This document shows, in pieces, positions 2,920 to 34,467 of a DNA stretch of 64,000 nt. A program made the position numbers and the translations under genes. The notes under the pieces are model-generated. The model was given only the letters and a program-made list of their open reading frames with translations. It had not been told where the DNA came from and ran no database searches. This DNA is from Escherichia phage FFH2, in the sequence record KJ190158. One strand, 5' to 3'. Numbering within the stretch: position 1 is the first letter of the stretch; each line of letters starts with the position of its first letter.

Positions 2920-4104
2920 TTAAGCTTTAGCTAAAATGGCGCTAAACTCTTCACCAAACTCTTTTACAATCTTCATCAGGTTTGGGTACGCTTTGATCAG
3001 TTGAGCAACGATCTTGTCACGCCCTTTACCGATAAGCAAGGCATTTCCTAAGGCATTAGGTTTCATCATCGCCATAAAGACTGAGAATACAAAATCTCGG
3101 TTCTCGTCCTTGAAGTTTTCCCAAAGGAAATCGAGGAAGTTTGCCACGCAGCTGACAAGATCTTCATCTGAGATACTTGCATTTTCCATCATATTACGAA
3201 TAGCGATACAACCTTCAGATCCAAGAATCCACAAGATGTCTGGCTGTTTAGGACCTACGTATTCTTTGCAACCCCCTGCCATAATCCGACCGATTTCCGG
3301 TAAGTTGCGTTTCTTGGTGTGGTAGGTCCAGATCTCTACCGCTGCAGTGTGACCAATAGCACCTTGCAGAAGAACACGGGCCATAGCGTCAGAAATAATA
3401 CCGCTGTCAAAATCGTGCAAGATGTCAGATGCAGCAACCCAAGATCGTGGTGTGGCAAAAGATGGACAATTAATCTCAGCCATAGCCTCATAATTATCAA
3501 TAGCTGATGGAACTCTTTTCAGATACCCAATCACAGAGGAGTGAACCCCGTTGAGGAATGCGTAGTCCTCAATAAACACCTCTGCATTGCTTGTAACCTC
3601 TACAATGATAAAGCGGTTAGCCAGAGGGGCTTCGAGCGCCGAAAGAACCGCACCATCTGTAGAACGGTTACCAGCAGCCACAAAAACAGAACCTTTAGGG
3701 AATGCATAGGTACCGCACTTGTGGTCAAGCATAATTTGCATTGCAACCTTTTGCAGGTAGTTATCTGCATGAGTGAGCTCATCCAGAAAGATAATTCCGC
3801 TCCAGTTCGGATCTGCAGGCCAAAATTCTGGAATTGCAAACACTGTACGTGTAGTTCCATCAGCTTCTACAGGGATAGGTAGCCCAGATAAGTCGGCAGG
3901 ATCTTTATCTGACAGTCGCACGTCAACAAGGTTGTCATCTCGCTCACCGAACATATTATCAGCGATCTGCTTCATCACCTGGCTTTTACCCACACCCATT
4001 GGTCCCAAAATTAGGACAGATCGGCTATGACGTTGGGCAAACTGAATAATAGCTGGCAACTCACGGACAGTGATTTGACCACTTTCGAATACGTTTCTTG
4101 ACAT
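2920..4104 (-). CDS. MoxR/CbbQ-like AAA+ ATPase (AAA_5-type)
   Basis: Walker A GPMGVGKS and Walker B IIFLDEL in the translation; size and layout typical of MoxR-family ATPases. Confidence 0.7.
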   Translation of the reverse strand: MSRNVFESGQITVRELPAIIQFAQRHSRSVLILGPMGVGKSQVMKQIADNMFGERDDNLVDVRLSDKDPADLSGLPIPVEADGTTRTVFAIPEFWPADPNWSGIIFLDELTHADNYLQKVAMQIMLDHKCGTYAFPKGSVFVAAGNRSTDGAVLSALEAPLANRFIIVEVTSNAEVFIEDYAFLNGVHSSVIGYLKRVPSAIDNYEAMAEINCPSFATPRSWVAASDILHDFDSGIISDAMARVLLQGAIGHTAAVEIWTYHTKKRNLPEIGRIMAGGCKEYVGPKQPDILWILGSEGCIAIRNMMENASISDEDLVSCVANFLDFLWENFKDENRDFVFSVFMAMMKPNALGNALLIGKGRDKIVAQLIKAYPNLMKIVKEFGEEFSAILAKA

Positions 4105-4373
4105 TAGTAAAAGTCCTCTACTTGTGTGTAAGTGTTTTCAAAGTTTTCCAAAACAGATATCACATCGAATCTGTCAATATCATACGTGACTCTCCAGTTG
4201 TACGCAACCCTTTCTGCTGTTGCCTCTTCTGGCGCTAGTCGTCTGCTGGCATAAAAGAGTGTTGGAGTACACTTTCTTGCTTGCCCTCTAACTTTCCCAT
4301 AATAATATCTGTGAATATCTTTGTCAAAATTTAACTCTTTTTCTGCACGAAGTTCATATTGCTGGTACAACAT
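4104..4373 (-). CDS. Hypothetical protein (89 aa)
   Basis: ORF tightly packed in minus-strand operon. Confidence 0.4.
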   Translation of the reverse strand: MLYQQYELRAEKELNFDKDIHRYYYGKVRGQARKCTPTLFYASRRLAPEEATAERVAYNWRVTYDIDRFDVISVLENFENTYTQVEDFY

Positions 4374-4417
4374 CTCTACTACTCCTTAAGCAGCATCCTT
4401 GCCGCCATTCCTGCCCA

Positions 4418-4798
4418 CTAAAATGCAGTCCGAATCCAGACAAGGTTCTTATCTGCCCAATCATAGAGGCAAGTCATTGCACTATTGAATTGCTCACACG
4501 GAGGATAATCTTCTTCCATCTGGCGCATAGCAGAGCCTTGTGGGTAAAGCTCCCGTGCTGCAAACCACGCATCGTAGTCATCCACGGTATCGAAGTAGTA
4601 TACAACATCCTCCAACTCAGGATCGAACTTTGAACTATCAGGATCCAGTTGTTCAGGGAACTTGGAGCGTAACTTGCCAGCCACAATACTTGCCAACTCG
4701 CTAACATGCTTATTGTCCCACTCCACTAGCTTCCCGTCTTCAGTGATGCGTCCTAACCACTGATCATGAAGGTCAACTGTTGTCTTCCACTGAGCCAT
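4418..4798 (-). CDS. Hypothetical protein (126 aa)
   Basis: ORF in operon context. Confidence 0.45.
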   Translation of the reverse strand: MAQWKTTVDLHDQWLGRITEDGKLVEWDNKHVSELASIVAGKLRSKFPEQLDPDSSKFDPELEDVVYYFDTVDDYDAWFAARELYPQGSAMRQMEEDYPPCEQFNSAMTCLYDWADKNLVWIRTAF

Positions 4799-4800
4799 TA

Positions 4801-5058
4801 TCAGTCCACCTCTTCTTCTCGTTGTAGTTCAAGATACCCGTAGGTCTGGACATCTTGAAGGGTGTGGAACTCCCCCTCTGCCGCTAAGGCACGAACAACT
4901 TGGCACAAAACCTTATGAGGAACTTCATCCAAACCTAGATTCAGTGCAGGAAACACCTTATCTAAGTCAACAAAATAAACGAACTGTAGCTCACCAGCTT
5001 CAAAAGGTGTATCTTCAATAAACATCTTCTCGGCATTAGTCAAGATCTGCACTTTCAT
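4801..5058 (-). CDS. Hypothetical acidic protein (85 aa)
   Basis: ORF in operon; 1-nt overlap with upstream gene. Confidence 0.4.
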   Translation of the reverse strand: MKVQILTNAEKMFIEDTPFEAGELQFVYFVDLDKVFPALNLGLDEVPHKVLCQVVRALAAEGEFHTLQDVQTYGYLELQREEEVD

Positions 5059-5414
5059 TATTCTACCTCCTCTTCTTTTTCTTCGGCATTAGTTTCATGG
5101 CTACTCCACTCGGGAGTTTCCACCTCGATAGTAAACTCACGCACTACACGGTAATTGCCCATGAAGCGCTCTACTTCGTCAAGGCTTATGGAGAGGCCAT
5201 TGGCAACCAGGTCTGCAGCACCCTCTTCTACCAGGTAGTCCAGATTGGCCTCCAGAGCCTCAGGTTCAAACCCTGTCAATGCAATCAGATAACCTTCCCC
5301 TTCATCAGGGAGGACAATACAGCCCAATTGATTTTCTTTAAAAAGGCAGTGACCATCATTATTGATTGGGTGTTCATTGCAGTAAATAGCTGCACGATAA
5401 GTAACTTTAGACAT
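5058..5414 (-). CDS. Hypothetical protein; start revised to ATG at 5414 (MSKVTYRA...)
   Basis: AAGGAG RBS 9 nt upstream of ATG at 5412-5414; track start at 5435 lies inside the upstream gene end. First 29 nt shared with an internal site of the plus-strand ORF at 7253-7281. Confidence 0.5.
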   Translation of the reverse strand: MSKVTYRAAIYCNEHPINNDGHCLFKENQLGCIVLPDEGEGYLIALTGFEPEALEANLDYLVEEGAADLVANGLSISLDEVERFMGNYRVVREFTIEVETPEWSSHETNAEEKEEEVE

Positions 5415-5427
5415 CGGTAAGGTCTCC

Positions 5428-5706
5428 TTAGGCAATTGTCATTTTACATTCTTGAAATTTTAACACAAGACGGTGATTGTGTCTAGTGTCTAAAAAGATT
5501 TTTTCAACCATCAGGCACACGGTATAACCGTCCATCTTGTTGACAACAAAATCTCCAGGATGAGGGAGGATGTCTCCCGGATTGGGGAAACATAGTTCAC
5601 TCAGAAAGGCATCGTCAGTGGTGGACTTAATAGATTTCCACACACTGTCTGCCTGAACATGTTCACCGACGTAATATACATTACCACATGCCTTCATCAT
5701 AGTCAA
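5428..5706 (-). CDS. Hypothetical protein (92 aa)
   Basis: ORF in operon, 4-nt overlap with upstream gene. Confidence 0.4.
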   Translation of the reverse strand: MTMMKACGNVYYVGEHVQADSVWKSIKSTTDDAFLSELCFPNPGDILPHPGDFVVNKMDGYTVCLMVEKIFLDTRHNHRLVLKFQECKMTIA

Positions 5707-6602
5707 ACCCTCGCATAAATTAAACTTGTATCAGTATACTTCTTTAATGGGTAAATATCCTGTCCATAGATGCAATCATTAAACACCTCATCTACCCAAA
5801 GGCTACACTTATATCCCATCATTTCTAAAACACCCATCTCTTCTTCGGTAAACTTATCACCGCTCTTGCAAGATGTCAATACCTCATTCTGAACTCTTGC
5901 CACCTCGAAGCGGTTATTGGCAATATCGCTATTGGCGATCAAATACTCACCTAAAGGGTGTGCGGCATTAAAGATGCACAGTGGACGGCTGACGTAATAG
6001 TCTCCGGGTGTATAAAAATTGTTGAGGTCTTTCACTAGAACATTCTTATCAGTCACTTCATTTATAACATCATGCATATCGCACATCTTTATATGTTTGA
6101 GGATTCCATCCCCCATCACAAAATAAAAACTTGCTGAGACACTTTCGGCATAGATCTTACTAGATCCGTTGTAGTTGTATTCTACTCGGATGCTAACGGG
6201 GGTTTTTCCTGTCGCGTTAGCCATCATCCAAAGAAATGGCAGCTCATACTTCTCCTCTGAGGAAACAAAAGGTGAGGTAGCCAGAGATCGAAAACCTCCA
6301 GAGAAGTTGAAAGTTACAGAACCGCTCCGGCGGTATGATACCGCGTATTCTACTTTTATATCGACGTACCCATTGGAATAGGTGTGTCCTTCATTATCTA
6401 AATATGTCCACTTATCAGACCCAGATACCAATCTACGCTCAATAACCTTCATCACTACAGGAATTAGTGGGTTGGTACAAACCGCTTTTGAAGTAGCTTT
6501 ATCATCTAAAGCCTCGTAAATTGCAGAAAGGATGTCCCCAGCTGAAAGATTGGTTGTTATGTCCTGTTTCCACCGCGTACTAAAACTGTTAAGATTTGCC
6601 AT
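5703..6602 (-). CDS. Hypothetical protein (299 aa), first gene of minus-strand early arm
   Basis: AGGAG RBS about 10 nt upstream of ATG; sigma70-like promoter immediately upstream. Confidence 0.55.
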   Translation of the reverse strand: MANLNSFSTRWKQDITTNLSAGDILSAIYEALDDKATSKAVCTNPLIPVVMKVIERRLVSGSDKWTYLDNEGHTYSNGYVDIKVEYAVSYRRSGSVTFNFSGGFRSLATSPFVSSEEKYELPFLWMMANATGKTPVSIRVEYNYNGSSKIYAESVSASFYFVMGDGILKHIKMCDMHDVINEVTDKNVLVKDLNNFYTPGDYYVSRPLCIFNAAHPLGEYLIANSDIANNRFEVARVQNEVLTSCKSGDKFTEEEMGVLEMMGYKCSLWVDEVFNDCIYGQDIYPLKKYTDTSLIYARV

Positions 6603-6642
6603 AAGTAAGTGCTCCTATGTTAGTTTTCTTTCGAATGGGTGC

Positions 6643-6671
6643 ACTATATTGTGGAGTTAGAGTAAAGTCAA
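6643..6671 (-). promoter_or_regulatory. Sigma70-like promoter for minus-strand early arm (-35 TTGACT, 17-nt spacer, -10 TATAGT)
   Basis: Read on minus strand; about 40-nt leader with AGGAG before ATG 6602. Confidence 0.5.
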
Positions 6672-6678
6672 CACGTTT

Positions 6679-7722
6679 TTGATGTTGACATCTGTTGAGA
6701 CAATTGATACGATTTCTTCACTTACAGAGCACGAGAGACGACTCATGAATCTTGAAAAATATTATACACCAGAAGAGTTAGAGCGCTTGCTCAAAAAATA
6801 TAGACGCAAACAGAATAACGCACGGAAACGAGATATAGAGTTCGACCTGTCATGGGAAGAATACCTCCTATTTGGTAAAAAACTTTTAGGAGATGGAGTA
6901 TGCGACTATACCCTTATACCTTTTGACATGCACACAGATGAAAACGGGCTGGGAAATCCTTTCTACCCATCTCTGGAGCGGATAGATGATGAAGGTCCTT
7001 ATGCGGTTGATAACTGTTGTGTGGTGGGATTGAGATGCAACTCTCTAAAGGACTGTCTGGTAGATAAAAAGACTGCAGTCTTGATTAAAGACGAAACTGA
7101 TCGAAAAATTGTCCAGCAGATGATGCTCCACCTGAGCGAAGAGCGTATGGAGAAATTGAAAGGTGATTATACTTTTGAAGATTTCATCTTGCAATATGGA
7201 ACGGAAGAGGATAAACTAGCACTCTTTGACGAAGAAGAGGAGGAAGATATGCTACCGATGTCTAAAGTTACTTATCGTGCACCCAAGAAGCACATTTCCG
7301 ACATTGTAAACGAGCCTATCACAGAAGAGATTGAAGAAATGACGCAACAGGTGCATGAAGAGGAAAAAGAGACTCAGGAGGTCGAAGAGGAGCTTACAGA
7401 AGAGGTTCCTGCACTACCTGATGATGTTGAGATTGCCAAAGCTTACACTTTCTATTGTCAAACGTTCTACGATGTAGGTATGAAAGTTGATCTGTCGTTC
7501 AGCCAATTTAAGAGTTCGTATATTCGCAAATGCTGTGCTTTAACTGGTGAACGTCTTGGAGCTGGACTTAAACCTCTGTTGGTGACCGACTGGAATAAAG
7601 GTTTCACTAAAGGAAACTTTATGGTAGTATCTCCAATTATGGAGAAAGCTATGACAGATCTTATGAAGACCACCCGCATGACAATGACCGAGTTGGCAGG
7701 TATTTTCAAACACGTTAAATAA
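6679..7722 (+). CDS. Hypothetical protein with Cys-containing N-terminal module and acidic linker; real start possibly ATG 6745
   Basis: Track start is TTG inside the -35 element of the predicted plus promoter; first ATG downstream of promoter is 6745. Segment ...IDDEGPYAVDNCCVVGLRCN... weakly recalls a His-Me-finger nuclease core (unverified). Internal in-frame MSKVTYRA shared with gene 5058-5414. Confidence 0.45.
   Translation: MMLTSVETIDTISSLTEHERRLMNLEKYYTPEELERLLKKYRRKQNNARKRDIEFDLSWEEYLLFGKKLLGDGVCDYTLIPFDMHTDENGLGNPFYPSLERIDDEGPYAVDNCCVVGLRCNSLKDCLVDKKTAVLIKDETDRKIVQQMMLHLSEERMEKLKGDYTFEDFILQYGTEEDKLALFDEEEEEDMLPMSKVTYRAPKKHISDIVNEPITEEIEEMTQQVHEEEKETQEVEEELTEEVPALPDDVEIAKAYTFYCQTFYDVGMKVDLSFSQFKSSYIRKCCALTGERLGAGLKPLLVTDWNKGFTKGNFMVVSPIMEKAMTDLMKTTRMTMTELAGIFKHVK
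6685..6713 (+). promoter_or_regulatory. Sigma70-like promoter for plus-strand early arm (-35 TTGACA, 17-nt spacer, -10 TACGAT)
   Basis: -35 elements of the two divergent promoters form inverted repeat GTCAACA-N9-TGTTGAC at 6667-6689. Confidence 0.45.
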
Positions 7723-7727
7723 TAACA

Positions 7728-7742
7728 GGGGCCAATGGCCCC
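7728..7742 (+). terminator. GC hairpin GGGGCC-AAT-GGCCCC, weak terminator or attenuator
   Basis: Between plus-strand genes; U-tract poor; overlaps upstream ATG of vWA ORF. Confidence 0.3.
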
Positions 7743-9216
7743 TTCTGGAGTTTTAATGGATAGCAGAAGTTCAGAAATCATTGCCTCGCAGAAAGATGAT
7801 GCCCTGAGAATGTTGCAGGCTGCACGTATGTATCTCCTTGAAAAGCTGCCGTTCTATGGCACACTACTGTCAGGGTTGCAGTTCGTAGAAAACCACACAT
7901 GGTGCTCCACCATGGCAACCGACCATAAACGCATCTATTACAGTCCTGAGTTCATTATGGGATTGGCTGATGAACGCAAGGCTATTCTTAAGGCTTCTCT
8001 AACTGACGAGCAGTTTGAGATGGCTGAAGTTTTCTATTCCCCAAAATCTGTGAAAGAGGTGGCCTTCCTTCTGTCACATGAGGTGGGGCATATTATCTGT
8101 GATCACCTAGTCCGTGGTAAAAGCTTTGAGCCGGAACTGTTCAATATTGCTTGTGATCACGTTATCAACACAGGCCTTGTGGTTGACTTTAGCAAACCTC
8201 CTTGTGTTTTCTTCCCGAAGGGGAAAAGCACTACGTTCGTGAAAGGTAAGCCTTTTGGATTCTTAGCCAGCTGCTACTGCGACATGAAGTTTCATGGATG
8301 GATTGCTGAGAACGTCTATGCAGTTCTTGATAAGCAAAGAGATCAGAATAACGGTAAAAGTAAGAGCGGTAAAGGTGAGAACTCTCAAGGAGATAAGCGA
8401 CAAACCGATGATCACATGAGTGGTAACGGTGGCACCAGTGATGATCTTGGAAAGGCTATGGGGTATGATCAGCCACAACCTGTAATCAGTCAATCTGATA
8501 AAGATCAGGCCATGCAGGACTCTGGTGACATGCTGGAGGCAGCAATGCAAGCTTCCGGAGGCCGTTGCCCTGAGGCGGTGCGTGAGTTTGTCAAGAACAG
8601 AGGTAAGCCTGTAATTAATTATATAGACATCATCAAGCAACGCATGTTGTCTAAACGAAAGGCTGAACTGACCTACAGAAAACCTGGTCGCCGATCTGGG
8701 TCTTTGACCAGCACAATGCGAAAAGTTGGGGCTATAAACAAGAACCAGCACGTTATTGTTCCTGGTCGTAATCCGGAAAACACCATAGATATTGTGGTAG
8801 CTTTAGACGTTTCTGGCTCGATCTCTCAAAGAACTTTAAAGAAAATGTTCAATGAAATCACCGGATTGTGCAATCTGTATAAAGAGTTTAAGGTTACAAT
8901 GTTCTGTTGGTCAACTGAAGTCGGAGAGGTTAAAGTATACACTCGCGGCAACATAGACGAGATGATCAATTATGAGGTCCACTCAACATGGGGCACAACA
9001 GCTGCTTGCGTGTTCGAGTATCTGGATGCTAACATACCGAATGCAAAAGATGTCATCGTCCTGACCGACCTATACTTTGAGCATAACTTTGAACAAAAGG
9101 CTGTTGACAACAAGTGGAAAAAGTACGATACTCTATGGGTTCTCACCGAAGGGTATAATAAAAATTATATTCCGAGCTTTGGGAAAACTGTGGAATTAAT
9201 CGAGTACGCTAAGTAA
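7735..9216 (+). CDS. vWA-domain protein with N-terminal HExxH metallopeptidase-like motif; likely start ATG 7756
   Basis: HEVGHIICDH (HExxH) in N-terminal half; vWA MIDAS motif VVALDVSGS with downstream STWGTT and VIVLTDL. ATG 7735 lies inside a GC hairpin; ATG 7756 has GGAG 7 nt upstream. Confidence 0.65.
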   Translation: MAPSGVLMDSRSSEIIASQKDDALRMLQAARMYLLEKLPFYGTLLSGLQFVENHTWCSTMATDHKRIYYSPEFIMGLADERKAILKASLTDEQFEMAEVFYSPKSVKEVAFLLSHEVGHIICDHLVRGKSFEPELFNIACDHVINTGLVVDFSKPPCVFFPKGKSTTFVKGKPFGFLASCYCDMKFHGWIAENVYAVLDKQRDQNNGKSKSGKGENSQGDKRQTDDHMSGNGGTSDDLGKAMGYDQPQPVISQSDKDQAMQDSGDMLEAAMQASGGRCPEAVREFVKNRGKPVINYIDIIKQRMLSKRKAELTYRKPGRRSGSLTSTMRKVGAINKNQHVIVPGRNPENTIDIVVALDVSGSISQRTLKKMFNEITGLCNLYKEFKVTMFCWSTEVGEVKVYTRGNIDEMINYEVHSTWGTTAACVFEYLDANIPNAKDVIVLTDLYFEHNFEQKAVDNKWKKYDTLWVLTEGYNKNYIPSFGKTVELIEYAK

Positions 9217-9222
9217 GAGAGG

Positions 9223-9489
9223 ATGTTATTTATGGCAACAGAGGTAGTAATCAAAGCTGAACGCCCAGTTAAAAAAGCTATCAACACGTTCCCTGTAGGA
9301 ACCATTGTGAGCATGATCACGGAGTCAGGCCGTATATCTACGCTGCTGATTGTGAAATCTGCATGTTCTTCTTGTGTGTGGGCTTACGATCTGGACGAGA
9401 AAGAACTAAAAGATTTTGTTGGGGAGCTGAAAGCAACCGAGCTCGATGCTCGTATCGAAGTATTTGGTGAAACTATGGAGGAAGAGTAA
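9223..9489 (+). CDS. Hypothetical protein (start may be ATG 9232)
   Basis: ORF; GAGAGG RBS. Confidence 0.4.
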   Translation: MLFMATEVVIKAERPVKKAINTFPVGTIVSMITESGRISTLLIVKSACSSCVWAYDLDEKELKDFVGELKATELDARIEVFGETMEEE

Positions 9490-9752
9490 TGACCACAAAA
9501 ATCACTATCGCAGAACCGAAAGCCAACACTCAACCTATCGAAAAGTTTAAGTGCGGTGAGGTGGTAACATTCACACCAGATAATGAAGATGCTAAGATTT
9601 TCGCAATGGTCACAGCTGAGTGGATGTGTGACAACACCACACAGGTTCTGCGTTTTGACACCTACCTCACAGATGAGATCCGAAACGATAAGATCGTGAC
9701 AGGTGTGGACACTGAAATTATTTTCTACAAGAGCTTTTTAGAGGGTTTCTGA
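9489..9752 (+). CDS. Hypothetical protein (87 aa)
   Basis: ORF with start overlapping previous stop. Confidence 0.4.
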   Translation: MTTKITIAEPKANTQPIEKFKCGEVVTFTPDNEDAKIFAMVTAEWMCDNTTQVLRFDTYLTDEIRNDKIVTGVDTEIIFYKSFLEGF

Positions 9753-13685: not shown

Positions 13686-16600
13686 TTAACTAGGGAAGTT
13701 TGTATAAGCTTCGAGATGGTATTGCTGGTTACCAGGTAGCATAATACCTATACTTGCAAGACCTAATGTTCTACCACCAGGGTACCACTGGAACTTAAAT
13801 CCAATCCAGCCCGAGCTTCTGGCTGCATCGATGTTGTCACTGTACCCAAAGGTGGCTAGACCATCAACACCTGCTCCGAAAAGCAGTTGTATCTGGTTCC
13901 TTGGTAGGCCAATAATTTCAGGTATGTAAGCACCAAAAAATGTAGGGTTGGTGGTTGTGGTCGGATTGTCCATGACCGGACCGGTAAAGACCCTCATATT
14001 GGACGTTCCTGCAGGTCTAGGGTAAGCCCCGTCAAGAGGATTTCCTTCCCAAATAAACCACTGAGGTGCCATCTGTCTGACAGTAAACGATGTTGAAGAC
14101 GTTTTGCGGCCTGCATCATCTCTAACTACAAACTTTATGGTGACATTCCCAGTAGCTTTAAATGTTACCAGCCCTGTGGTGGCATCCACTGTTGCAATGT
14201 TGGTATTACTACTTTCCCAAGTCTTTCTAATCCCGGATACGTTGGAAGGGGTGATAGAAGGTTCCTGCATCTGCAGTTTACCGCCCACAATCCCTATGCC
14301 GTTGCCCGGATTATACAGCACACCGACCTCGTCTATAATGTTCCCTGCTTTGAGACTATACTTCCTTGAGAAGTTGTAAGTTCCGTTATAAGTGTGTGTC
14401 CCTGAGAATGTGACATCTGCCTTCCCGTAAGAGATGCAAACCAACGCATACTTCCTGTCAGGCAACGTTTCTCCAGTCTCTGGGTGAGTTTTACCTACCT
14501 GGAACACACTCGGGTCAGTAGAGTCGTGACTATCACTAACGGAGCTTGGACCGCCCATCAATTGTGACAAACAATTCCTTACCCATGTCCAGTTATTATC
14601 GCTGGAGAAGTCCACAGTCAAATCAAACACAACCCACTCATTTGGCTTCCACACAGGTGTTGCAATGGACTTGCCTACACCACCTCCTTGGAGTGTTGCC
14701 GACTGCTCGGTGATCAGGGCCGCATAGGCCAGAGTTCCTAAACTCAGAGTCTGGCTTGCTGTCCTCACTACCTTAGAATCAGCATCTGTGAAGTTGTTGA
14801 TGATTTGGAATGTGCCATAAGTGTTTTTACAGGTAATTCTGGCGTTCAGCGTGTCAATCTTCCTCACATCTGCCATAGCAGTGTTAGACACAGAGAAGTC
14901 AGAAGCTTTAGCTGAGTTTGCCGCAACAGCAGGATCAACGTTAAGAGTTGCGTTGAACTGACAGGCAGGGGTAACCAGCAGCTTGTTATCACCTATTTGC
15001 TTCCATGAAATACTTTGGACAGGTAGATTCCATTTAATACCTGAGAAAACTTTAGCAACCCTTGGCCCCAAAGCTCCAGTCCTGTTGTCTTTACAGCACA
15101 TAGACATGGTGATCGTTGACGGAGTTGCCTGACCAAATAATTGCTGTGCTTTTGCAGAGGACATAGTGTAGAAATTGTCCTTAACAAACTCATCAGCAGC
15201 TAAAGATCCATCAGCTCTCCACCACTGAACCTGGTACCCTGTTTTGTCCCAACCACCGACCTGCTTCAAGTCCTCCCAGGAGATTTCTAGATCCCCAGTG
15301 GTAGGGTTGATTGCAGCAGTTCCCGGTGTTCCGGGTGACCACAATGGAATATCGAACCACGCTGGTTTAACCGACTGCACTGCGCTGGGACCTATTGCGG
15401 CAGCAAGTTGCTGGCCCATCAATACGCGAGCATCTTTCACCAGACCCCACTCGATCATAGACCCAGAGTAACCTTCTTTCTTGTAGGCTGAGGATCCGTT
15501 CAAATGGATGAGTCGGCTTGTGCCAAAGTTATATGCCCCGCCACCATTATCATCTGCAAAATTGTATATGATTCTATCTCGGATATCTTTCCATGCTCTA
15601 CCGCCAATCTCGTAGTCATGGTCATAACATCTTTGCAGTGTTGTCCAGCAGATGATCGCCATCCTTCTGCCGTTACTAAAGCCAAAGGCCTGATCGTTGA
15701 GCTCTCTCCACAAGTAGCAGTTGGTAGTCCACATAGCTCTGTGAATGTTGAACCAATTTATAGACCTGGCTGCATTGTTGTAGGCAGTTCCTTCTAGCGT
15801 AGGCCACACTGCATTAACCAGCATGTCCTCTGTTCCTGCATCTATCAGGAATCCTCTCACTTTCTTACCCATACCTACTCTATCCTTGGCAATCCATGCG
15901 CCGAATAATTTCAGTTTAGGACCGATTACGGCATCCTCTGGATGCTCAAGAGAGACATACTTCAAGTATACTGTAGGATCACCGTAGGTGCCATCACAAA
16001 CAGCTTTGTGCATGTTCTCACCAAGATCCAGACGGATACCTGTGAGAGTCTTGGTATCATCTGTGAACTTATCTGTTAAATCAAACTCGTACCACCACCA
16101 CCCGGCTCCAAGTAAAACTTTCTTACAGCGCTTAGAGTCTGTGTCGGAGATTCTTTTATCTCCCGCATATGGTGAGTCTGCAAACTGGTAGTGCAGAGCA
16201 ACTTCAAAAGGATGTGTGGATGTTCCGTTTTCTGCAAGAACTTGCTTTCCGATCAGATCGCATTTAATAATCATCACGACACGTCTGTACCCATTGGCAA
16301 CTGGAACGTCGAACGGATACCTTGCACCATCCATATTCGCATGCAAAGCTGCGAAATTTATGTATGGGTCAACAGCGTTACCTAAAGTTTCAGGCCCTGG
16401 GATCATCTTGTACTTCTTGACCTGTCCCATGATATAGTCGCTGCCGTAGGTTGCAGCCTCGAAGCAAGAACCGCTGTCAGGCAGTTCAGCAGGCCCCCAA
16501 AAGTATGCCCCGTAACAATTATAGAACCACTTGTTAGGGTCATAGGTATTCTTGAAGGTCTGAACCTCGTTTGCCTGTTTTGTCAAGAAAACCTGAGTAT

Positions 16601-19313
16601 CTGTAAAGATTGCAGGATTTACCCTTGCCTGACGCGGAGGGTAACCTGTAGTTTGGTTAAACCACAGATTGCAAGAGTAATCCCTCATATAGTCATAATC
16701 AGAGTATTTGTTTACATCTTCGTTCCAACACATGTTCAGGTTGGTACCGCCCATGCATACAATATATTCTGCGACATACTTATCACTTCTGGTAGGAATA
16801 CCTATGAACCATCTGTTAACAGGCTCATCCCAAGCTGTGCGCTCATCTTTAACGCAGATAGCAATCCAGTCATGTGTTCCTGTTTTCTTGCACACATCTC
16901 GCTTCATACCATAGTAGAACTCTTTAGTATTCGGCTCAGGTGCATTTATCAGGTAACTCCATGCCTGATTTGCATAAGTCCCATTGGTGCGCGGATCATG
17001 ATCAAAGGCATACATGATGATCCTTTCCCCACCAAGATGTTCGCCAAGAGTAACTTTGACATTCACATCGCCGTAACCGTTGCGAACAACATCCATATTG
17101 TCAATAGAGATGCCTCTAGGAGTGTAGGCAATTTTCAGTGAGTTATTCTCATTAGCGCCACCAAGAGTGACCCCTATGTTGTTTGTTGTCCCGTCGGCAT
17201 ATCTTACTGTAGCTTCCCAGCGTATTCCGAAATATCCTGCATCATGGCTGACAATTTTCAGTGTACGAGCTCCCGGGTGAGGTTTTCCAGGATCAGGCCA
17301 AGGGTCTGGGTGTTCGTGAACAGTCAACGACGTTCCGTTCTGCTCATTAACCTGCAACATTTTACCACCCTTGCCATTAGGATTGAACTCCCACAAGGCT
17401 TGTGTTTTCACAATATTGTCATACGTGGCGCGTCTTTGATCGTAGATCTCTTGGGTCACATCATAAGTGACTGATCCAGCATCCATTCTGTAGAGTCTGA
17501 CCATATACGATGTATCCCCTTCTACTGCAGGCTGGGTCCCATTCAGCCCAAAGTATACAGTATCGTTAACATGGAACTGCTTGTTTCTACCAACGGTATG
17601 CCACTTGCCGTTGGACGGATACGCAGGAACTATAGTGTTCCAGTTCAAAGTCCTTGTCGTATAGGTTCTTCCAGTGCCATGCTTGTCATGGTAGGTGATC
17701 TTGATAGAATACAAACCACGTCTGTTGATGTTACGGTTATACTGGGTGACCACAACTTCGTTAGCACCACCATGGTTCCAGTTAGTGGAGAACTGATAGT
17801 TTGCATCTGTAACAACAGTGCCTGCAGCATTTACCAACTCAATCTTGTCAATAATGAACGTAGCACCCTCCGGCTGAGGTTTCAATTTCATCTTGACAGT
17901 ATCTCCGATGTAAATGTTGCTAACATTGCTCACACCATTGACATCAAAGATGTCTTCGATACCCCAGCTATCTACCGGGACATTTTTATACCAATTCTCC
18001 GGAATCTCTGTGAACCCTTGGCTGTTAAGTCTGCCGCCAAAGAGGTTATTAGATCCTGAAAAACTACCACGTGGTATTCCTGACCACCAAAGCTTTCCAT
18101 TTACCACACAGAATGTGCCTAAGAAACCTTCCCTGTGGATCCCTTGAAAATAAACGCTTTCTGTCCAGCTTACTGGCTCTGTCTGTTCAACAAACTTAGC
18201 TGTTGCCAGCGCTCTGTAATGAATAAAATTGGCCCTAGGACTATTATTAGCAGATTGAGCACCAATATCGTTACACAGGTTTCTGGAGAAACCACGGTAC
18301 TGTTTTGTACCATTATTGAAGAAAATTCCACTAGTCCCGTACCCGCGAGCCATAATTACTTCATGGGTATAGGTGATGTTAAGGCTTCTCCACGTGTCGT
18401 CACCCCAAACATCCTGACCATAAAACACATTAACAAGCTGTTGGTCATCAGGTTTGTGCATCCTTTCTGTGGCTATAATTGCACCATTAGGTCCACACAT
18501 GAACCCTTTCCATGTCTCGCCCACCGGGATGCCTTTAAACTGGTCAAGAGTCACATGCTCGGCTGGATAAACTAGTGTGTTTTTGCTGTTATTTCTTAAG
18601 AAATCGTAACCTGCAATCCAGAATCCGTTAGGACCACCAAAAATAACCGAGTTGTCATGAACTTCACAATTAATTCTTGGATTTTTCCAAGGACCTGTCT
18701 CTGGACTTTCAGATGTTTCACCGATCTTAACTGGAGTAGCGTGTTGACTTTTGTCAACATGAAGAGAGCCGTAAGTATTATTGCCAGAGCCGTACAGGTG
18801 AAGCATACCATCAGCCTCTGGTGCAGCAATTACCCACACTGTATTGTTTACGCCACCCATTACTTCAACAAGTCTCTCAGGATGGGTGTCCAAATGCAAC
18901 CCTGTTACGATCTGTTCCGGCAAAGGTGTCCACTCTCTGACACAAACATCGTTTCCACCTGCTGCCTCCGATCCGATAAGACCAGCTGTGCAACCAATAT
19001 AGAAAAATTTATTATCGAATGTGCGGATTACAAATGCACGGTCAGCTCTCCAAACATGGTCTACGTTCCAAGCTGCCTCATTAGGATAGTTTATTGTATC
19101 AAGATCTCCAGTCCGACACTCTCCGAACCTATTATAGCCAGTAATATTAAGCTGACCATCATCAAAAAGTATAGCTAAGCTATTTACATAGGATACTGTG
19201 TTGCTTGTACCATCACTGTTGTCTATTGGGTATGACAGAACAGCAAGTTCCTTAATTCCACCCCTCTTATCGAGGAAATGACGACCAAGTTTTAGCAAAG
19301 GGATTGGAAGCAT
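13686..19313 (-). CDS. Giant tail fibre or tailspike-like structural protein (1875 aa)
   Basis: Size and position in the fibre block; Ig-like segment TGLVTFKATGNVTIKFVV near C-terminus; Gly/Asn/Thr-rich repetitive composition. Confidence 0.55.
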   Translation of the reverse strand: MLPIPLLKLGRHFLDKRGGIKELAVLSYPIDNSDGTSNTVSYVNSLAILFDDGQLNITGYNRFGECRTGDLDTINYPNEAAWNVDHVWRADRAFVIRTFDNKFFYIGCTAGLIGSEAAGGNDVCVREWTPLPEQIVTGLHLDTHPERLVEVMGGVNNTVWVIAAPEADGMLHLYGSGNNTYGSLHVDKSQHATPVKIGETSESPETGPWKNPRINCEVHDNSVIFGGPNGFWIAGYDFLRNNSKNTLVYPAEHVTLDQFKGIPVGETWKGFMCGPNGAIIATERMHKPDDQQLVNVFYGQDVWGDDTWRSLNITYTHEVIMARGYGTSGIFFNNGTKQYRGFSRNLCNDIGAQSANNSPRANFIHYRALATAKFVEQTEPVSWTESVYFQGIHREGFLGTFCVVNGKLWWSGIPRGSFSGSNNLFGGRLNSQGFTEIPENWYKNVPVDSWGIEDIFDVNGVSNVSNIYIGDTVKMKLKPQPEGATFIIDKIELVNAAGTVVTDANYQFSTNWNHGGANEVVVTQYNRNINRRGLYSIKITYHDKHGTGRTYTTRTLNWNTIVPAYPSNGKWHTVGRNKQFHVNDTVYFGLNGTQPAVEGDTSYMVRLYRMDAGSVTYDVTQEIYDQRRATYDNIVKTQALWEFNPNGKGGKMLQVNEQNGTSLTVHEHPDPWPDPGKPHPGARTLKIVSHDAGYFGIRWEATVRYADGTTNNIGVTLGGANENNSLKIAYTPRGISIDNMDVVRNGYGDVNVKVTLGEHLGGERIIMYAFDHDPRTNGTYANQAWSYLINAPEPNTKEFYYGMKRDVCKKTGTHDWIAICVKDERTAWDEPVNRWFIGIPTRSDKYVAEYIVCMGGTNLNMCWNEDVNKYSDYDYMRDYSCNLWFNQTTGYPPRQARVNPAIFTDTQVFLTKQANEVQTFKNTYDPNKWFYNCYGAYFWGPAELPDSGSCFEAATYGSDYIMGQVKKYKMIPGPETLGNAVDPYINFAALHANMDGARYPFDVPVANGYRRVVMIIKCDLIGKQVLAENGTSTHPFEVALHYQFADSPYAGDKRISDTDSKRCKKVLLGAGWWWYEFDLTDKFTDDTKTLTGIRLDLGENMHKAVCDGTYGDPTVYLKYVSLEHPEDAVIGPKLKLFGAWIAKDRVGMGKKVRGFLIDAGTEDMLVNAVWPTLEGTAYNNAARSINWFNIHRAMWTTNCYLWRELNDQAFGFSNGRRMAIICWTTLQRCYDHDYEIGGRAWKDIRDRIIYNFADDNGGGAYNFGTSRLIHLNGSSAYKKEGYSGSMIEWGLVKDARVLMGQQLAAAIGPSAVQSVKPAWFDIPLWSPGTPGTAAINPTTGDLEISWEDLKQVGGWDKTGYQVQWWRADGSLAADEFVKDNFYTMSSAKAQQLFGQATPSTITMSMCCKDNRTGALGPRVAKVFSGIKWNLPVQSISWKQIGDNKLLVTPACQFNATLNVDPAVAANSAKASDFSVSNTAMADVRKIDTLNARITCKNTYGTFQIINNFTDADSKVVRTASQTLSLGTLAYAALITEQSATLQGGGVGKSIATPVWKPNEWVVFDLTVDFSSDNNWTWVRNCLSQLMGGPSSVSDSHDSTDPSVFQVGKTHPETGETLPDRKYALVCISYGKADVTFSGTHTYNGTYNFSRKYSLKAGNIIDEVGVLYNPGNGIGIVGGKLQMQEPSITPSNVSGIRKTWESSNTNIATVDATTGLVTFKATGNVTIKFVVRDDAGRKTSSTSFTVRQMAPQWFIWEGNPLDGAYPRPAGTSNMRVFTGPVMDNPTTTTNPTFFGAYIPEIIGLPRNQIQLLFGAGVDGLATFGYSDNIDAARSSGWIGFKFQWYPGGRTLGLASIGIMLPGNQQYHLEAYTNFPS

Positions 19314-19320
19314 TGTGTTC

Positions 19321-19354
19321 TCCAGATAAGAAAACCGCCCCGTCAGGAGCGGTT
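19321..19354 (-). terminator. Hairpin AACCGC...GCGGTT with U-rich tail, copy 1
   Basis: Inside duplicated unit. Confidence 0.45.
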
Positions 19355-19361
19355 AGATATA

Positions 19362-19649
19362 TTAACGTTGTGCAATTACTACGTCTACAATATCACCAAC
19401 ACCACAATACGTTAATTGCAGCAAGGTAACACTGTTAGCCTTGTTGTTAATAACAGGTGTTGCCGACAGGATAGCATACTTATCGTGCAAAGTCACGTTG
19501 TGACCTAGTACTGGGCTATTTACATAGGATACTGTGTTGCTTGTACCATCACTGTTGTCTATTGGGTATGACAGAACAGCAAGTTCCTTAATTCCACCCC
19601 TCTTATCGAGGAAATGACGACCAAGTTTTAGCAAAGGGATTGGAAGCAT
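19362..19649 (-). pseudogene. Chimeric ORF made by tandem duplication: N-terminus of the 1875-aa fibre fused to C-terminus of the 581-aa protein
   Basis: First 45 aa identical to start of 13686-19313 product; last ~43 aa identical to end of 19698-21443 product; lies within duplicated copy. Confidence 0.45.
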
Positions 19650-19656
19650 TGTGTTC

Positions 19657-19690
19657 TCCAGATAAGAAAACCGCCCCGTCAGGAGCGGTT
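19657..19690 (-). terminator. Same hairpin, copy 2 (after the 581-aa gene)
   Basis: Identical to copy 1, offset 336 bp. Confidence 0.45.
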
Positions 19691-19697
19691 AGATATA

Positions 19698-21443
19698 TTA
19701 ACGTTGTGCAATTACTACGTCTACAATATCACCAACACCACAATACGTTAATTGCAGCAAGGTAACACTGTTAGCCTTGTTGTTAATAACAGGTGTTGCC
19801 GACAGGATAGCATACTTATCGTGCAAAGTCACGTTGTGACCTACAGCATCCTGAATGACATAGATAACTGCAGTGAATGGATAAGGTTTATCTTCCGCTG
19901 ATGTCCCAGGCCACTGTCCTATTGTAAAATCCCCTTTCGCGTGGACAACATACATGCTGGCCTGCCCGTTAGGTGTCCATGTCCCACTGGACGCGTCAAC
20001 CTCCTCTAAGTCAAAATCTACCTTTCCTGCGTGGAAAGTAGGGGCAGTAATGGTTTTACCCGCCTCAATTTCTTGAGAGGTGGTTATCTTACCACTGGAG
20101 TTAATGCCATTACAGACAAAGTTGACATTAGAGAAGTCTGGCAGCCACCCGGTCACTGTGCCGGATATTTCAAGGTTGTGAAGGTGGGTGGTGCCAGTCC
20201 CTGCGGCGTTTAAACTAACATCTCCATTTACCTGCAAGTTTCTGGTAATGTTGCAGTTTTCAGAGTTTGCAGTTGTTGCAGTTAAAGTGGTGGTGGTTAG
20301 CTCGGTAATTGTACCTTTATTGGCTGTAAGCCCTTCTCCTTCAAAAGTTGCACGCTCATTGACTCTTAGAGTATTCAGAGCTATATTTTGGATAGAGGCT
20401 GTACCTCGAATAACTACAGACCCGCCAACCTCCAAATCGCCATTTATCAATGCATCACCCGTGCTTTCAATATAGCTAGGGTAGATCATGGTGCCATCGA
20501 CAGAGTATGTTATCCCTGTAACGGTACCTGTCACCTCAAGGTTCTTAACCCTGGTGGTCCCATCGACCTGCAATGTCGGTTCGGTTGCTGCCTTCATGGC
20601 ATTACCACGAATGTACACGTAGTCAAAAAAGTTATTACCCAGACCATCAAAATGCACATCGTTATTATTAGCCACTGGTTTCCCAGAAGTTATAGTGTCA
20701 GCTATAACCCTGTGGGTGGACACTTCATGAGGTTGCAGCTCTGTACTTCTCCAGTCTGCATGCTTAGGATCGCTCCACGCAAAAGTAAGTGTAGAAGTAT
20801 TTGCCGTGAGGATTAGATTCCTAAAGCGTGCAGTAGAATCTGCCCCATTAACAGGTCCATGTAAGGTAAGGGTGCCACCAACTATAGTGTTAGCGAGTTC
20901 TGTAAGACCTTTTACCACCAAAGACCCTACAGTAACTTTCATCCCCTCCATGGCTTTAAATATGCTATCAACATAGTCAACAACAAACTCTGTGTTTGCT
21001 ATGGACTCTGACTTATCGTCCATTGGAGGTGTAGGTACTCGTGGGTCACCTTCGAACCTCGGGCTGTTAAGTTTTGCGTAGTATTTTGCCATTACTGCAG
21101 AGTCGGTATATAATCTCCAGTTTGGAGATTGTGAAGGATCTGCTGGCATTCTAACCGGGTTAGATTTTGATGCTGCGGGAGCGTACCACCACTGGGGGCC
21201 TGTGTCCCCTTTAAACTCGTACAGCTGGTTAAAAACTGTTGTGGATGCACCATACGCCCAAGGGATCGGTGGCGTTTTAAAATAAAGGTTGTCAAGCATG
21301 GCTTTTCGTACCGTAGGGATGGTGGTCCCATCCTCTACGACAACTTCATCCACAGCGTTACCGTTGACAACCAAGTGCAAACGTTCAGAATCAACAATTA
21401 CTTGATCTACCGCCTGCTCAAAGCTTGTCATGTCTTGCGCCAT
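19698..21443 (-). CDS. Tail fibre or tailspike-like protein (581 aa)
   Basis: Position in fibre module; Thr/Gly/Asn-rich repetitive beta-type composition. Confidence 0.5.
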   Translation of the reverse strand: MAQDMTSFEQAVDQVIVDSERLHLVVNGNAVDEVVVEDGTTIPTVRKAMLDNLYFKTPPIPWAYGASTTVFNQLYEFKGDTGPQWWYAPAASKSNPVRMPADPSQSPNWRLYTDSAVMAKYYAKLNSPRFEGDPRVPTPPMDDKSESIANTEFVVDYVDSIFKAMEGMKVTVGSLVVKGLTELANTIVGGTLTLHGPVNGADSTARFRNLILTANTSTLTFAWSDPKHADWRSTELQPHEVSTHRVIADTITSGKPVANNNDVHFDGLGNNFFDYVYIRGNAMKAATEPTLQVDGTTRVKNLEVTGTVTGITYSVDGTMIYPSYIESTGDALINGDLEVGGSVVIRGTASIQNIALNTLRVNERATFEGEGLTANKGTITELTTTTLTATTANSENCNITRNLQVNGDVSLNAAGTGTTHLHNLEISGTVTGWLPDFSNVNFVCNGINSSGKITTSQEIEAGKTITAPTFHAGKVDFDLEEVDASSGTWTPNGQASMYVVHAKGDFTIGQWPGTSAEDKPYPFTAVIYVIQDAVGHNVTLHDKYAILSATPVINNKANSVTLLQLTYCGVGDIVDVVIAQR

Positions 21444-29168: not shown

Positions 29169-29199
29169 AGCATAAAAATAAACCCCGCCGAAGCGGGGC
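29169..29199 (-). terminator. UUCG-tetraloop terminator (CCCCGC-UUCG-GCGGGG plus UUUAUUUUUAU)
   Basis: After J-like gene; promoter follows. Confidence 0.6.
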
Positions 29200-34435: not shown

Positions 34436-34467
34436 TACAAACAAAAAGCCCCCGCCGAAGCGAGGGC
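34436..34467 (-). terminator. UUCG-tetraloop terminator (GCCCUCGC-UUCG-GCGGGGGC plus UUUUUGUUUG)
   Basis: After gene 34474-34806; promoter follows. Confidence 0.6.

Follow-up and report, generated by a model that had tools for sequence, protein, structure and literature searches.

Some phage early genes share translational operators, a common sequence which overlaps their start codons, as in the targets of T4 RegA and in gp32 autoregulation. Inverted repeats also bound invertible segments, such as the Mu G and P1 C segments and the shufflons. A third situation is classical ectopic conversion, which usually requires more than 7–10 nt of flanking homology. It is established that template switching homogenises the arms of imperfect inverted repeats and makes multi-nucleotide changes in coding regions (Ripley model, reviewed in PMC8604942). 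In documented quasi-palindrome switches the spacers are mostly shorter than about 100 nt, the shorter ones being favoured (PMC8604942).

Here we describe a perfect 29 bp inverted repeat whose copies lie in two genes of Escherichia phage FFH2. The window, the whole stretch of DNA that was analysed, has 64,000 nt and belongs to a Vequintavirus (rV5-like coliphage). We consider that the copy on the plus strand is a non-reciprocal templated patch, produced by template switching or by microhomology-primed ectopic conversion and probably neutral; we give this reading a probability of about 80%.

Results

The inverted repeat

The sequence TACCGATGTCTAAAGTTACTTATCGTGCA is found exactly twice in the window, in inverted orientation and 1,833 nt apart. 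An exact search places the copies at 7253–7281 (plus strand) and 5391–5419 (minus strand), as an earlier note on this DNA had claimed, and no other site in the window matches with up to 3 mismatches. This is the longest perfect inverted repeat of the window, and comparison of the flanks shows that identity between the copies ends sharply at 29 nt. A chance origin is ruled out by dinucleotide-preserving shuffles, none of which (0/100) contained a 29-mer match. An assembly artefact is also ruled out, since 26 genomes which were sequenced independently, and one gut metagenome contig, contain the same allele. The main features of the locus are the following.

5058..5414, minus strand: ORF8, 118 aa, function not known, phrog_12908, the donor gene
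5391..5419, minus strand: 29-mer of the donor, made up of ORF8 codons 1–8 (MSKVTYRA) and the 5 nt of leader before them
5424..5429, minus strand: Shine-Dalgarno AAGGAG of ORF8, 9 nt before the ATG, outside the repeat
6643..6713, no single strand: divergent sigma-70-like promoters, between ORF10 and ORF11
6745..7722, plus strand: ORF11 (gp11), 325 aa, phrog_3118 over its full length (E = 6.5e-113), the recipient gene
7234..7410, plus strand: acidic linker of gp11, residues 164–222, where indels and substitutions between alleles are concentrated
7237..7244, plus strand: Shine-Dalgarno-like GAGGAGGA, part of a run of Glu codons encoding EEEEED
7253..7281, plus strand: derived copy of the 29-mer, gp11 residues 170–179 (LPMSKVTYRA), in the interdomain linker
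7254..7260, plus strand: left microhomology ACCGATG, 7 nt, present in the ancestral gp11 allele and at the ORF8 start (alignments)
7261..7273, plus strand: replacement of 13 nt, TCTAAAGTTACTT, which ousted the ancestral 25 nt CAGGAYTTTAAAAAYTTYATGGCTR, a net change of −12 nt
7274..7281, plus strand: right microhomology ATCGTGCA; rV5-type alleles have ATCGTGCAGC, a 10 nt identity with ORF8

Both copies encode (L)PMSKVTYRA, the plus copy in the reading frame of ORF11. Each of them is in sense orientation in its own mRNA and includes an in-frame ATG. The promoters at 6643..6713 are divergent, so the two copies lie in oppositely transcribed units. The genes which contain them are unrelated, as had been proposed: They belong to different PHROG families (12908 and 3118).

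Donor and recipient genes

The minus copy spans the real start of ORF8. The ATG is found at 5414–5412, and the same start is annotated in rV5, JES2013, FV3 and other phages; the start and the upstream AAGGAG are as proposed earlier. This copy is present at the ORF8 site in all 18 related loci examined, with 0–3 mismatches, and a 31-mer query is matched over at least 80% by about 114 phage records. Most of the phages examined, with one copy or with two, have the same 29-mer in ORF8, and the changes seen in the others are unrelated to the presence of the patch. A Pfam search gave no matches for ORF8, ORF9, ORF10 or gp11, and the PHROG families of ORF8–10 are of unknown function only. The ORF8 start has a 17 nt identity with T4-type motA starts (E = 3), which we consider a chance match, amplified by the large number of T4-like records.

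An alignment of homologues shows that gp11 has an N-terminal domain of the endonuclease VII/Srd type, an acidic hypervariable linker and a conserved C-terminal domain. The N-terminal half also matches the endonuclease VII, Srd anti-sigma factor and sigma-70 decoy families in PHROGs, and gp11 has been described in rV5 as a probable Srd homologue (PMC3606486). BLASTP does not detect any internal duplication between the two halves. The AlphaFold2 model has pLDDT values below 50 for residues 164–222, but it is poor as a whole (mean pLDDT 52.6) and we have used it as weak support only; the linker is probably disordered. The plus copy is internal and in frame, after the acidic stretch in ORF11, just as the earlier note had described it. 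A 16 nt, 94% match between 7232–7247 and the 3' end of ORF8 was attributed to the low complexity of the Glu codons.

Distribution among relatives

Of about 115 relatives with sequenced genomes, about 26 (about 22%) have the gp11 copy; Murica, LL12 and WalterGehring are among the two-copy phages. The 26 records with the patch share a single 86 nt allele, which is 100% identical over the 86 nt in 25 of them. Two places of match are present in 27 of 304 records, and at least 85 related genomes have the 29-mer at the ORF8 site only. The comparison of loci covers 18 related loci of the approximately 115 genomes. With more than 8 mismatches at the site, rV5, JES2013, I29, FV3, HMD-6, naam and two IMG/VR contigs lack the gp11 copy, and slur16, NHEP1 and contig ODLN have a long ancestral form at this site. 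An exact search of IMG/VR with the 29-mer gave no matches, a search with the ORF8 protein gave 2 loci only, and a metagenome scan with a 24 nt core detected only 2 contigs, both with normal contexts.

The patch alleles share exactly their boundaries and flanking changes, which points to a single event. They are found in mosaic backgrounds: In ECP32 and inoa the allele with the patch is joined to N- or C-terminal halves of 91–95% identity, and I29, which is 99.2% identical in ORF9–10, lacks the patch. Once formed, the two copies have evolved independently. ECP32 has TACCTATG and TATCAATG, and nomine has TACCG and TGCCG; no concerted evolution or co-variation of the copies was detected in the two-copy loci compared. 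The core coding for MSKVTYRA is unchanged in every two-copy genome examined.

The ancestral allele and its replacement

At the gp11 site, rV5, FV3, slur16, I29 and others have ACCGATG, 25 nt and ATCGTGCAGC; at the point of the left microhomology, rV5, JES2013 and NHEP1 read TCACCGATG. All one-copy alleles have CAGGAYTTTAAAAAYTTYATGGCT between ACC[G/A]ATG and AYCGTG, in lineages which are 89–97% identical. The outgroup proteins P0015 and P0016 also retain the long form MTPAQELREFMEKR, and such long-form proteins are 65% identical. The presence of the long form in all one-copy alleles and in proteins as distant as these indicates that it is ancestral, and that the short form with the 29-mer is derived.

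The change consists in the replacement of 25 nt by 13 nt within a block of 37 columns, whose flanks are 90–100% identical. The new tract in gp11 is an exact reverse complement of the ORF8 start (29/29), and the ancestral gp11 allele was already an imperfect inverted repeat with ORF8 (7 + 10 nt). The direction of copying is from ORF8 to gp11, into a site which microhomology flanked beforehand. Each edge of the patch has a C (7252 and 7282) which differs from both the donor and the ancestral allele; these two bases require extra mutations or an unsampled parent allele.

Discussion

A probable templated patch

The following sequence of events may be proposed. The ORF8 start, 1.8 kb away and in inverted orientation, would have served as the template while DNA of the gp11 linker was being synthesised in a phage ancestral to the Murica-type vequintaviruses. 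Entry would have taken place through the pre-existing 7 nt ACCGATG and return through the pre-existing 8–10 nt ATCGTGCA[GC]. In this single event, 13 nt of ORF8 would have supplanted the 25 ancestral nt, which would have turned a weak quasi-palindrome into a perfect 29 bp inverted repeat. The event was non-reciprocal, as ORF8 is unchanged. The patch would have been tolerated for three reasons: It keeps the reading frame (net −12 nt), it has no stop codons, and it lies in a hypervariable, probably disordered acidic linker. Homologous recombination between co-infecting phages may later have spread the patch allele to other backgrounds.

The enzymology, either a replicative template switch or microhomology-primed repair (ectopic conversion), and the lack of a dedicated function are suggested by this pattern. 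Neutrality appears likely: A frequency of about 22% on several backgrounds fits drift and recombination, and selection is also possible. The earlier note had suggested that the shared region might be a recombination junction. A recombination origin agrees with our results, since one copy is derived; a junction of two fused genes does not.

Other explanations

The position of the repeat over two ATG codons suggests a shared cis-regulatory element, a translational operator or a site for an sRNA or protein, which would co-regulate ORF8 and an internal start of gp11. The sense orientation of both copies, their in-frame ATGs and the SD-like GAGGAGGA upstream in gp11 are in favour of this idea, which had been put forward before. 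We find it highly improbable. The gp11 copy is missing in about 78% of close relatives, which retain both genes, and the Shine-Dalgarno of ORF8 is outside the repeat. The motif in gp11 appears to be a by-product of the Glu codons. Between its end and the ATG at 7258 there are 13 nt, too many for typical spacing, so this codon has no well-spaced Shine-Dalgarno; the motif also ends 4 nt before another in-frame ATG, at 7249. RNA structure is at chance level in the 29-mer (MFE −2.2 kcal/mol, z = −0.05) and not significant in the two mRNA contexts (z = −1.56 and −0.71). Drift in the 5' part of one copy is independent of that in the other. At least 85 genomes have the 29-mer at the ORF8 site only, which is one half of what the earlier note named as refuting its reading, and this also leaves the operator unsupported. 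The same ATGs may suggest that gp11 consists of two fused genes, or yields a separate C-terminal product, with the 29-mer as the boundary. In fact, the plus copy lies in a linker between two separately conserved domains, there are in-frame ATGs at 7249 and 7258, and one-copy alleles also have the equivalent codons for Met. Nevertheless, the patch is specific to one lineage. All intact homologues, down to 55% identity, are single proteins of 305–349 aa with both domains, and the phrog_3118 profile covers both halves of gp11. Shorter homologues are frameshifted or truncated, none of them being split at the 29-mer. The comparison with related phages which had been suggested, a search for independent genes at this point, thus gave no split gp11 among homologues down to 55% identity. 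As gp11 is one polypeptide in the relatives and the SD-like motif is badly placed, fused genes or an internal start are very unlikely. We consider it equally very unlikely that gp11 was selected for a useful MSKVTYRA peptide, for example a shared interaction or degradation tag. The frequency of the allele (about 22% of sequenced genomes, several backgrounds) and the constancy of the coding core in all two-copy genomes examined would fit selection. However, the identity at the nucleotide level includes all synonymous sites, which indicates copying and not convergence. Within gp11, constraint is weakest in the linker, the motif is N-terminal in ORF8 and internal in gp11, and it matches no known motif in Pfam or PHROGs.

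Other explanations take the repeat as the boundary of a segment. Its 29 bp arms might allow a low-frequency switch by homologous recombination, which would invert the 1.83 kb between them in Murica-type vequintaviruses. The positions of the repeats and their common reading frame permit this, and 29 bp is about the minimal length for homologous recombination. If it took place, the N-terminal domain of gp11 would be fused to full-length ORF8, a free C-terminal domain of gp11 would be translated from the ribosome-binding site of ORF8, and a subpopulation would have rewired early proteins. The inverted isomer would contain the chimeric junctions GAAGATATGC-29mer-GCTATTTACTGC and AAGGAGACCT-29mer-CCCAAGAAGCAC. 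No record covers at least 80% of a synthetic query with a chimeric junction among 117 matching phage records, which are consensus assemblies from which rare isomers could escape. Four two-copy genomes (magaca, C2, PMBT16 and nomine) each match the window in a single piece and are thus collinear with it. Both copies have their normal contexts in six two-copy loci, and only normal contexts are found in the two metagenome contigs. No recombinase is present in the segment or beside it: ORF8–10 have no Pfam match and their PHROGs are of unknown function. We therefore regard such a switch as extremely unlikely. A perfect inverted repeat which bounds a discrete segment also recalls the ends of a mobile element, a 1.9 kb cassette with terminal inverted repeats, an explanation whose probability is practically nil. 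In all relatives ORF9, ORF10, the promoters and the N-terminal half of gp11 are found at this place, in collinear arrangement, and the enclosed segment is kept whether or not the right-hand repeat is present. No transposase is detected with Pfam or PHROGs, and a conserved gene has its coding start in one of the arms.

Significance of the patch

This locus is a clean natural case of a templated multi-nucleotide mutation, with samples of all three of its elements: donor, ancestral allele and product. A single step would have changed ten residues of a phage early protein, from a template unusually far away (1.8 kb). Such events have a bearing on the diversification of phage linkers and ORFan sequences, and on models which assume independent substitutions. 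The case also calls for caution: A perfect repeat over two start-like contexts looks regulatory, but the related phages show it to be a recent copying scar.

Comparison with known systems

As in the Mu G and P1 C segments and the shufflons, there are in-frame inverted repeats in coding regions which could exchange C-terminal parts. Unlike in these systems, a recombinase gene is lacking, most relatives do not have the repeat, and none of about 117 genomes shows the alternative orientation. The resemblance to shared translational operators, such as those of T4 RegA and gp32, lies in a sequence which overlaps a start codon in more than one mRNA. In this case, however, a gene start has been demonstrated for one of the copies only; the other is lineage-specific, internal to an ORF and without a properly spaced Shine-Dalgarno. 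No conservation, covariation or structure of the operator kind is seen here.

Short-tract ectopic conversion and microhomology-mediated templated repair also give a non-reciprocal short tract between non-allelic sites of one genome, bounded by short identities. The differences are that donor and recipient are not paralogues here, and that the flanking identity is only 7 and 8–10 nt, well under the usual requirement. The nature of the change itself recalls the quasi-palindrome template switches of the Ripley model, the E. coli QP hotspots and the homogenisation of inverted-repeat arms in yeast (PMC8604942). A clustered change with an indel is fully explained by reverse-complement copying within the same molecule, an ancestral imperfect inverted repeat is made perfect while the donor is unchanged, and within a coding region several neighbouring residues change. 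In contrast with those switches, the spacer is 1,833 nt instead of tens, and conversion has affected a long arm of 29 nt, of which 13 are new. With such a spacer and such short flanking homology, the event is not typical of either textbook mechanism. The long spacer and long arm make an intramolecular hairpin unlikely, so that a switch across the fork, or one associated with repair, has to be invoked.

Genomic Context

The phage studied, an rV5-like myovirus of E. coli, belongs to Vequintavirus. Region 4000-9500 is matched by 119 phage records with 90–99% identity and is collinear with rV5. Sixteen "Campylobacter phage" records (GenBank MG0656xx, host C. jejuni) are 96–99% identical to the window. 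The one opened, MG065635.1, is marked UNVERIFIED, and these records are probably coliphage contaminants or carry wrongly labelled hosts.

Two genes and the element they share are considered here:

5058-5414, minus strand: ORF8, conserved hypothetical protein (phrog_12908)
5391-5419, minus strand: 29-mer, ORF8 copy
6745-7722, plus strand: ORF11 or gp11, match to phrog_3118 over its full length
7253-7281, plus strand: 29-mer, gp11 copy

Both genes are first or near-first in divergent early transcription units, with bidirectional promoters between them. The annotation of gp11 differs among records (anti-sigma factor, Srd-like, anti-termination protein, HNH endonuclease), its N-half also matches endonuclease VII, Srd and sigma-70-decoy families, and the rV5 paper describes it as a probable Srd homologue (PMC3606486). 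It is adjoined by a DUF2201 metallopeptidase/VWA-like protein (7735-9216, Pfam E = 3.5e-28). On the opposite strand, a few genes from gp11, is a protein (2920-4104) that carries the annotation MoxR-type AAA+ ATPase in relatives. They look like a MoxR-VWA pair divided between the divergent early units.

The Repeated Element

The 29-mer, TACCGATGTCTAAAGTTACTTATCGTGCA, has two exact occurrences in the window, where no further site is found with up to 3 mismatches; 100 dinucleotide-preserving shuffles give no match. The two copies are the sole long perfect inverted repeat of the 64-kb window, with a 1,833 nt spacer between the arms. They diverge immediately past both borders: The minus-strand copy is flanked by AAGGAGACCT and GCTATTTAC, the plus-strand copy by GAAGATATGC and CCCAAGAAG.

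The details in the earlier note are confirmed: the minus copy covers the real start of ORF8 (ATG at 5414-5412 inside the 29-mer, AAGGAG 9 nt upstream), and the plus copy is internal to ORF11 and in frame. Both thus encode (L)PMSKVTYRA. The GAGGAGGA motif upstream of the plus copy also exists (7237-7244); its end lies 13 nt ahead of the ATG at 7258, and it is part of a Glu-codon run encoding EEEEED.

The first 17 nt of ORF8, ATGTCTAAAGTTACTTA (MSKVTY, 5396-5414), coincide with the motA start in a large number of T4-like phages. With an E-value of about 3, this fits a chance match that is multiplied because T4-like records are numerous.

Other repeats are found in the window. A perfect 336-bp tandem duplication (19179-19850, 300 nt 100% identical at a 336-nt period) covers the 5' end of a 1875-aa lateral tail-fibre ORF (13686-19313, minus strand), an intergenic hairpin and the 3' end of a 581-aa tail-fibre ORF (19698-21443). 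In the best 12 relatives, 100% identical, the whole 1,001-nt query falls on only 665 nt of their sequence, so they have one copy each; the duplication is either private to this genome or an assembly artefact. The final 12 nt of the 29-mer, ACTTATCGTGCA, are also found in each unit (19474-19485 and 19810-19821); chance alone would give about 0.1 matches to such a 12-mer, so the recurrence is probably coincidental. Three sites (2489-2517, 29171-29199, 34438-34466) have an A-rich run with the hairpin CCCCGCCGAAGCGGGG after it, and these look like a recurrent terminator motif.

Distribution in Related Phages

The ORF8 copy is universal, found at the same site with 0–3 mismatches in all 18 related loci fetched. 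A 31-mer query is matched over at least 80% in about 114 records. Among all matching records, only 27 have two places. The gp11 linker allele containing the 29-mer (patch allele) is present in 26 records, 25 at 100% identity across 86 nt and ECP32 at 97.7%. Both copies also occur in one gut-metagenome contig. At the gp11 site the element is absent (more than 8 mismatches) from rV5, JES2013, I29, FV3, HMD-6, naam and two IMG/VR contigs, and slur16, NHEP1 and contig ODLN have the long ancestral form.

All one-copy alleles, from lineages up to ~10% different, read ...GATATG TCA CC[G/A] ATG CAGGAYTTTAAAAAYTTYATGGCT [G/A]AY CGT G[C/G]A GCC AAC..., and an equivalent long form, MTPAQELREFMEKR, is kept in proteins only 65% identical. 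The long form is thus ancestral and the window form derived.

Origin of the gp11 Copy

Comparison of the ORF8 start, the ancestral gp11 and the window gp11
ORF8 start: T TACCGATG TCTAAAGTTACTT ATCGTGCAGC T
rV5 gp11: TC ACCGATG CAGGATTTTAAAAATTTCATGGCTG ATCGTGCAGC C
Window gp11: C TACCGATG TCTAAAGTTACTT ATCGTGCA CC C

Two short stretches of the ancestral rV5-type gp11 allele were already identical to the ORF8 start: ACCGATG, 7 nt, at the left and ATCGTGCAGC, 10 nt, at the right. Between these microhomologies, 25 ancestral nt are replaced by 13 nt from ORF8, a net loss of 12 nt which keeps the frame. ORF8 itself is unaltered, so the transfer went from ORF8 to gp11 and was non-reciprocal. All patch alleles have identical boundaries and identical neighbouring differences, which points to a single event. 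The edge bases C7252 and C7282 are unlike the donor and the known ancestral alleles; we infer a TCA>TTA change (templated) followed by a synonymous TTA>CTA, plus GCC>CCC, which would account for them.

Since then the two copies have not changed in concert: ECP32 has TACCTATG in gp11 and TATCAATG in ORF8, and nomine has TACCG and TGCCG, respectively. The patch allele is found on mosaic backgrounds. Identity to the window is only 91.4% in the gp11 C-half of ECP32 and 95.1% in the N-half of inoa, another carrier, while I29 has the ancestral linker despite 99.2% identity over ORF9-10. A polymorphism that homologous recombination shuffles through a recombining phage population would be expected to look like this. 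Alleles of the acidic linker (7231-7420, loci L001-L018) fall into three or more classes, among them rV5-type, FV3/HMD-6-type and Murica-type, which are set apart by 3-, 9- and 12-nt indels and ~10% substitutions; the domains on either side are 91–100% identical. Diversity is thus locally concentrated in the linker, and mosaic recombination between species is clear.

Alternative Interpretations

A shared translational operator, proposed in the earlier note, agrees poorly with the data: About 78% of relatives have no gp11 site, the repeat does not include the ORF8 Shine-Dalgarno, and RNA folding of the 29-mer does not exceed that of shuffles (-2.2 kcal/mol, z = -0.05; z = -1.56 and -0.71 for the two 80-nt contexts). 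Nor does gp11 appear to be two fused genes. Its homologues, down to 55% identity, are single proteins of 305–349 aa in which a variable acidic linker joins an N-domain to a C-domain, and the few shorter entries are frameshifted or truncated elsewhere. The patch lies in this linker (residues 170–179); the AF2 model, poor overall (mean pLDDT 52.6), has pLDDT <50 at residues 164–222. None of our computational results appears to favour an internal start; the in-frame ATG with the better spacing, at 7249, is not within the repeat core. The data do not support the regulatory and fusion interpretations. A recombinational or templated origin is supported, and the suggested recombination junction stands as a templated patch, in no other sense.

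The arms might also act as a rare inversion switch, flipping the enclosed segment, and since both are in the same frame the products would be in-frame chimeras. However, a synthetic chimeric-junction query is covered over at least 80% in none of 117 matching records, every two-copy genome checked is collinear with the window, metagenome contigs only show the normal contexts and no recombinase gene was found nearby, which makes such a switch highly improbable. We have rejected the 29-mers as ends of a mobile element, because the segment between the arms is fixed and collinear both in relatives that have the right arm and in those that lack it.

Comparison with Known Mechanisms

The templated patch bears the signature of polymerase template switching that homogenises inverted-repeat arms. 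Ripley was the first to put this mechanism forward, on the basis of phage data, and replacement of several residues in coding DNA is a documented outcome (PMC8604942). The 1.8-kb spacer sets the event apart from typical cases and speaks against a simple nascent-strand hairpin. More likely would be a cross-fork switch, or microhomology-primed synthesis-dependent repair with the inverted site as ectopic template. Of four features of the template-switch class that sequence can test, three are present, the short spacer being the exception, and the extended homology of classical ectopic conversion is not found. For these reasons we describe the event as a long-range templated patch, which works like template switching or ectopic conversion but is not classed as a canonical member of either. 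It is a fresh case of a known type of mutation and probably has no dedicated function.
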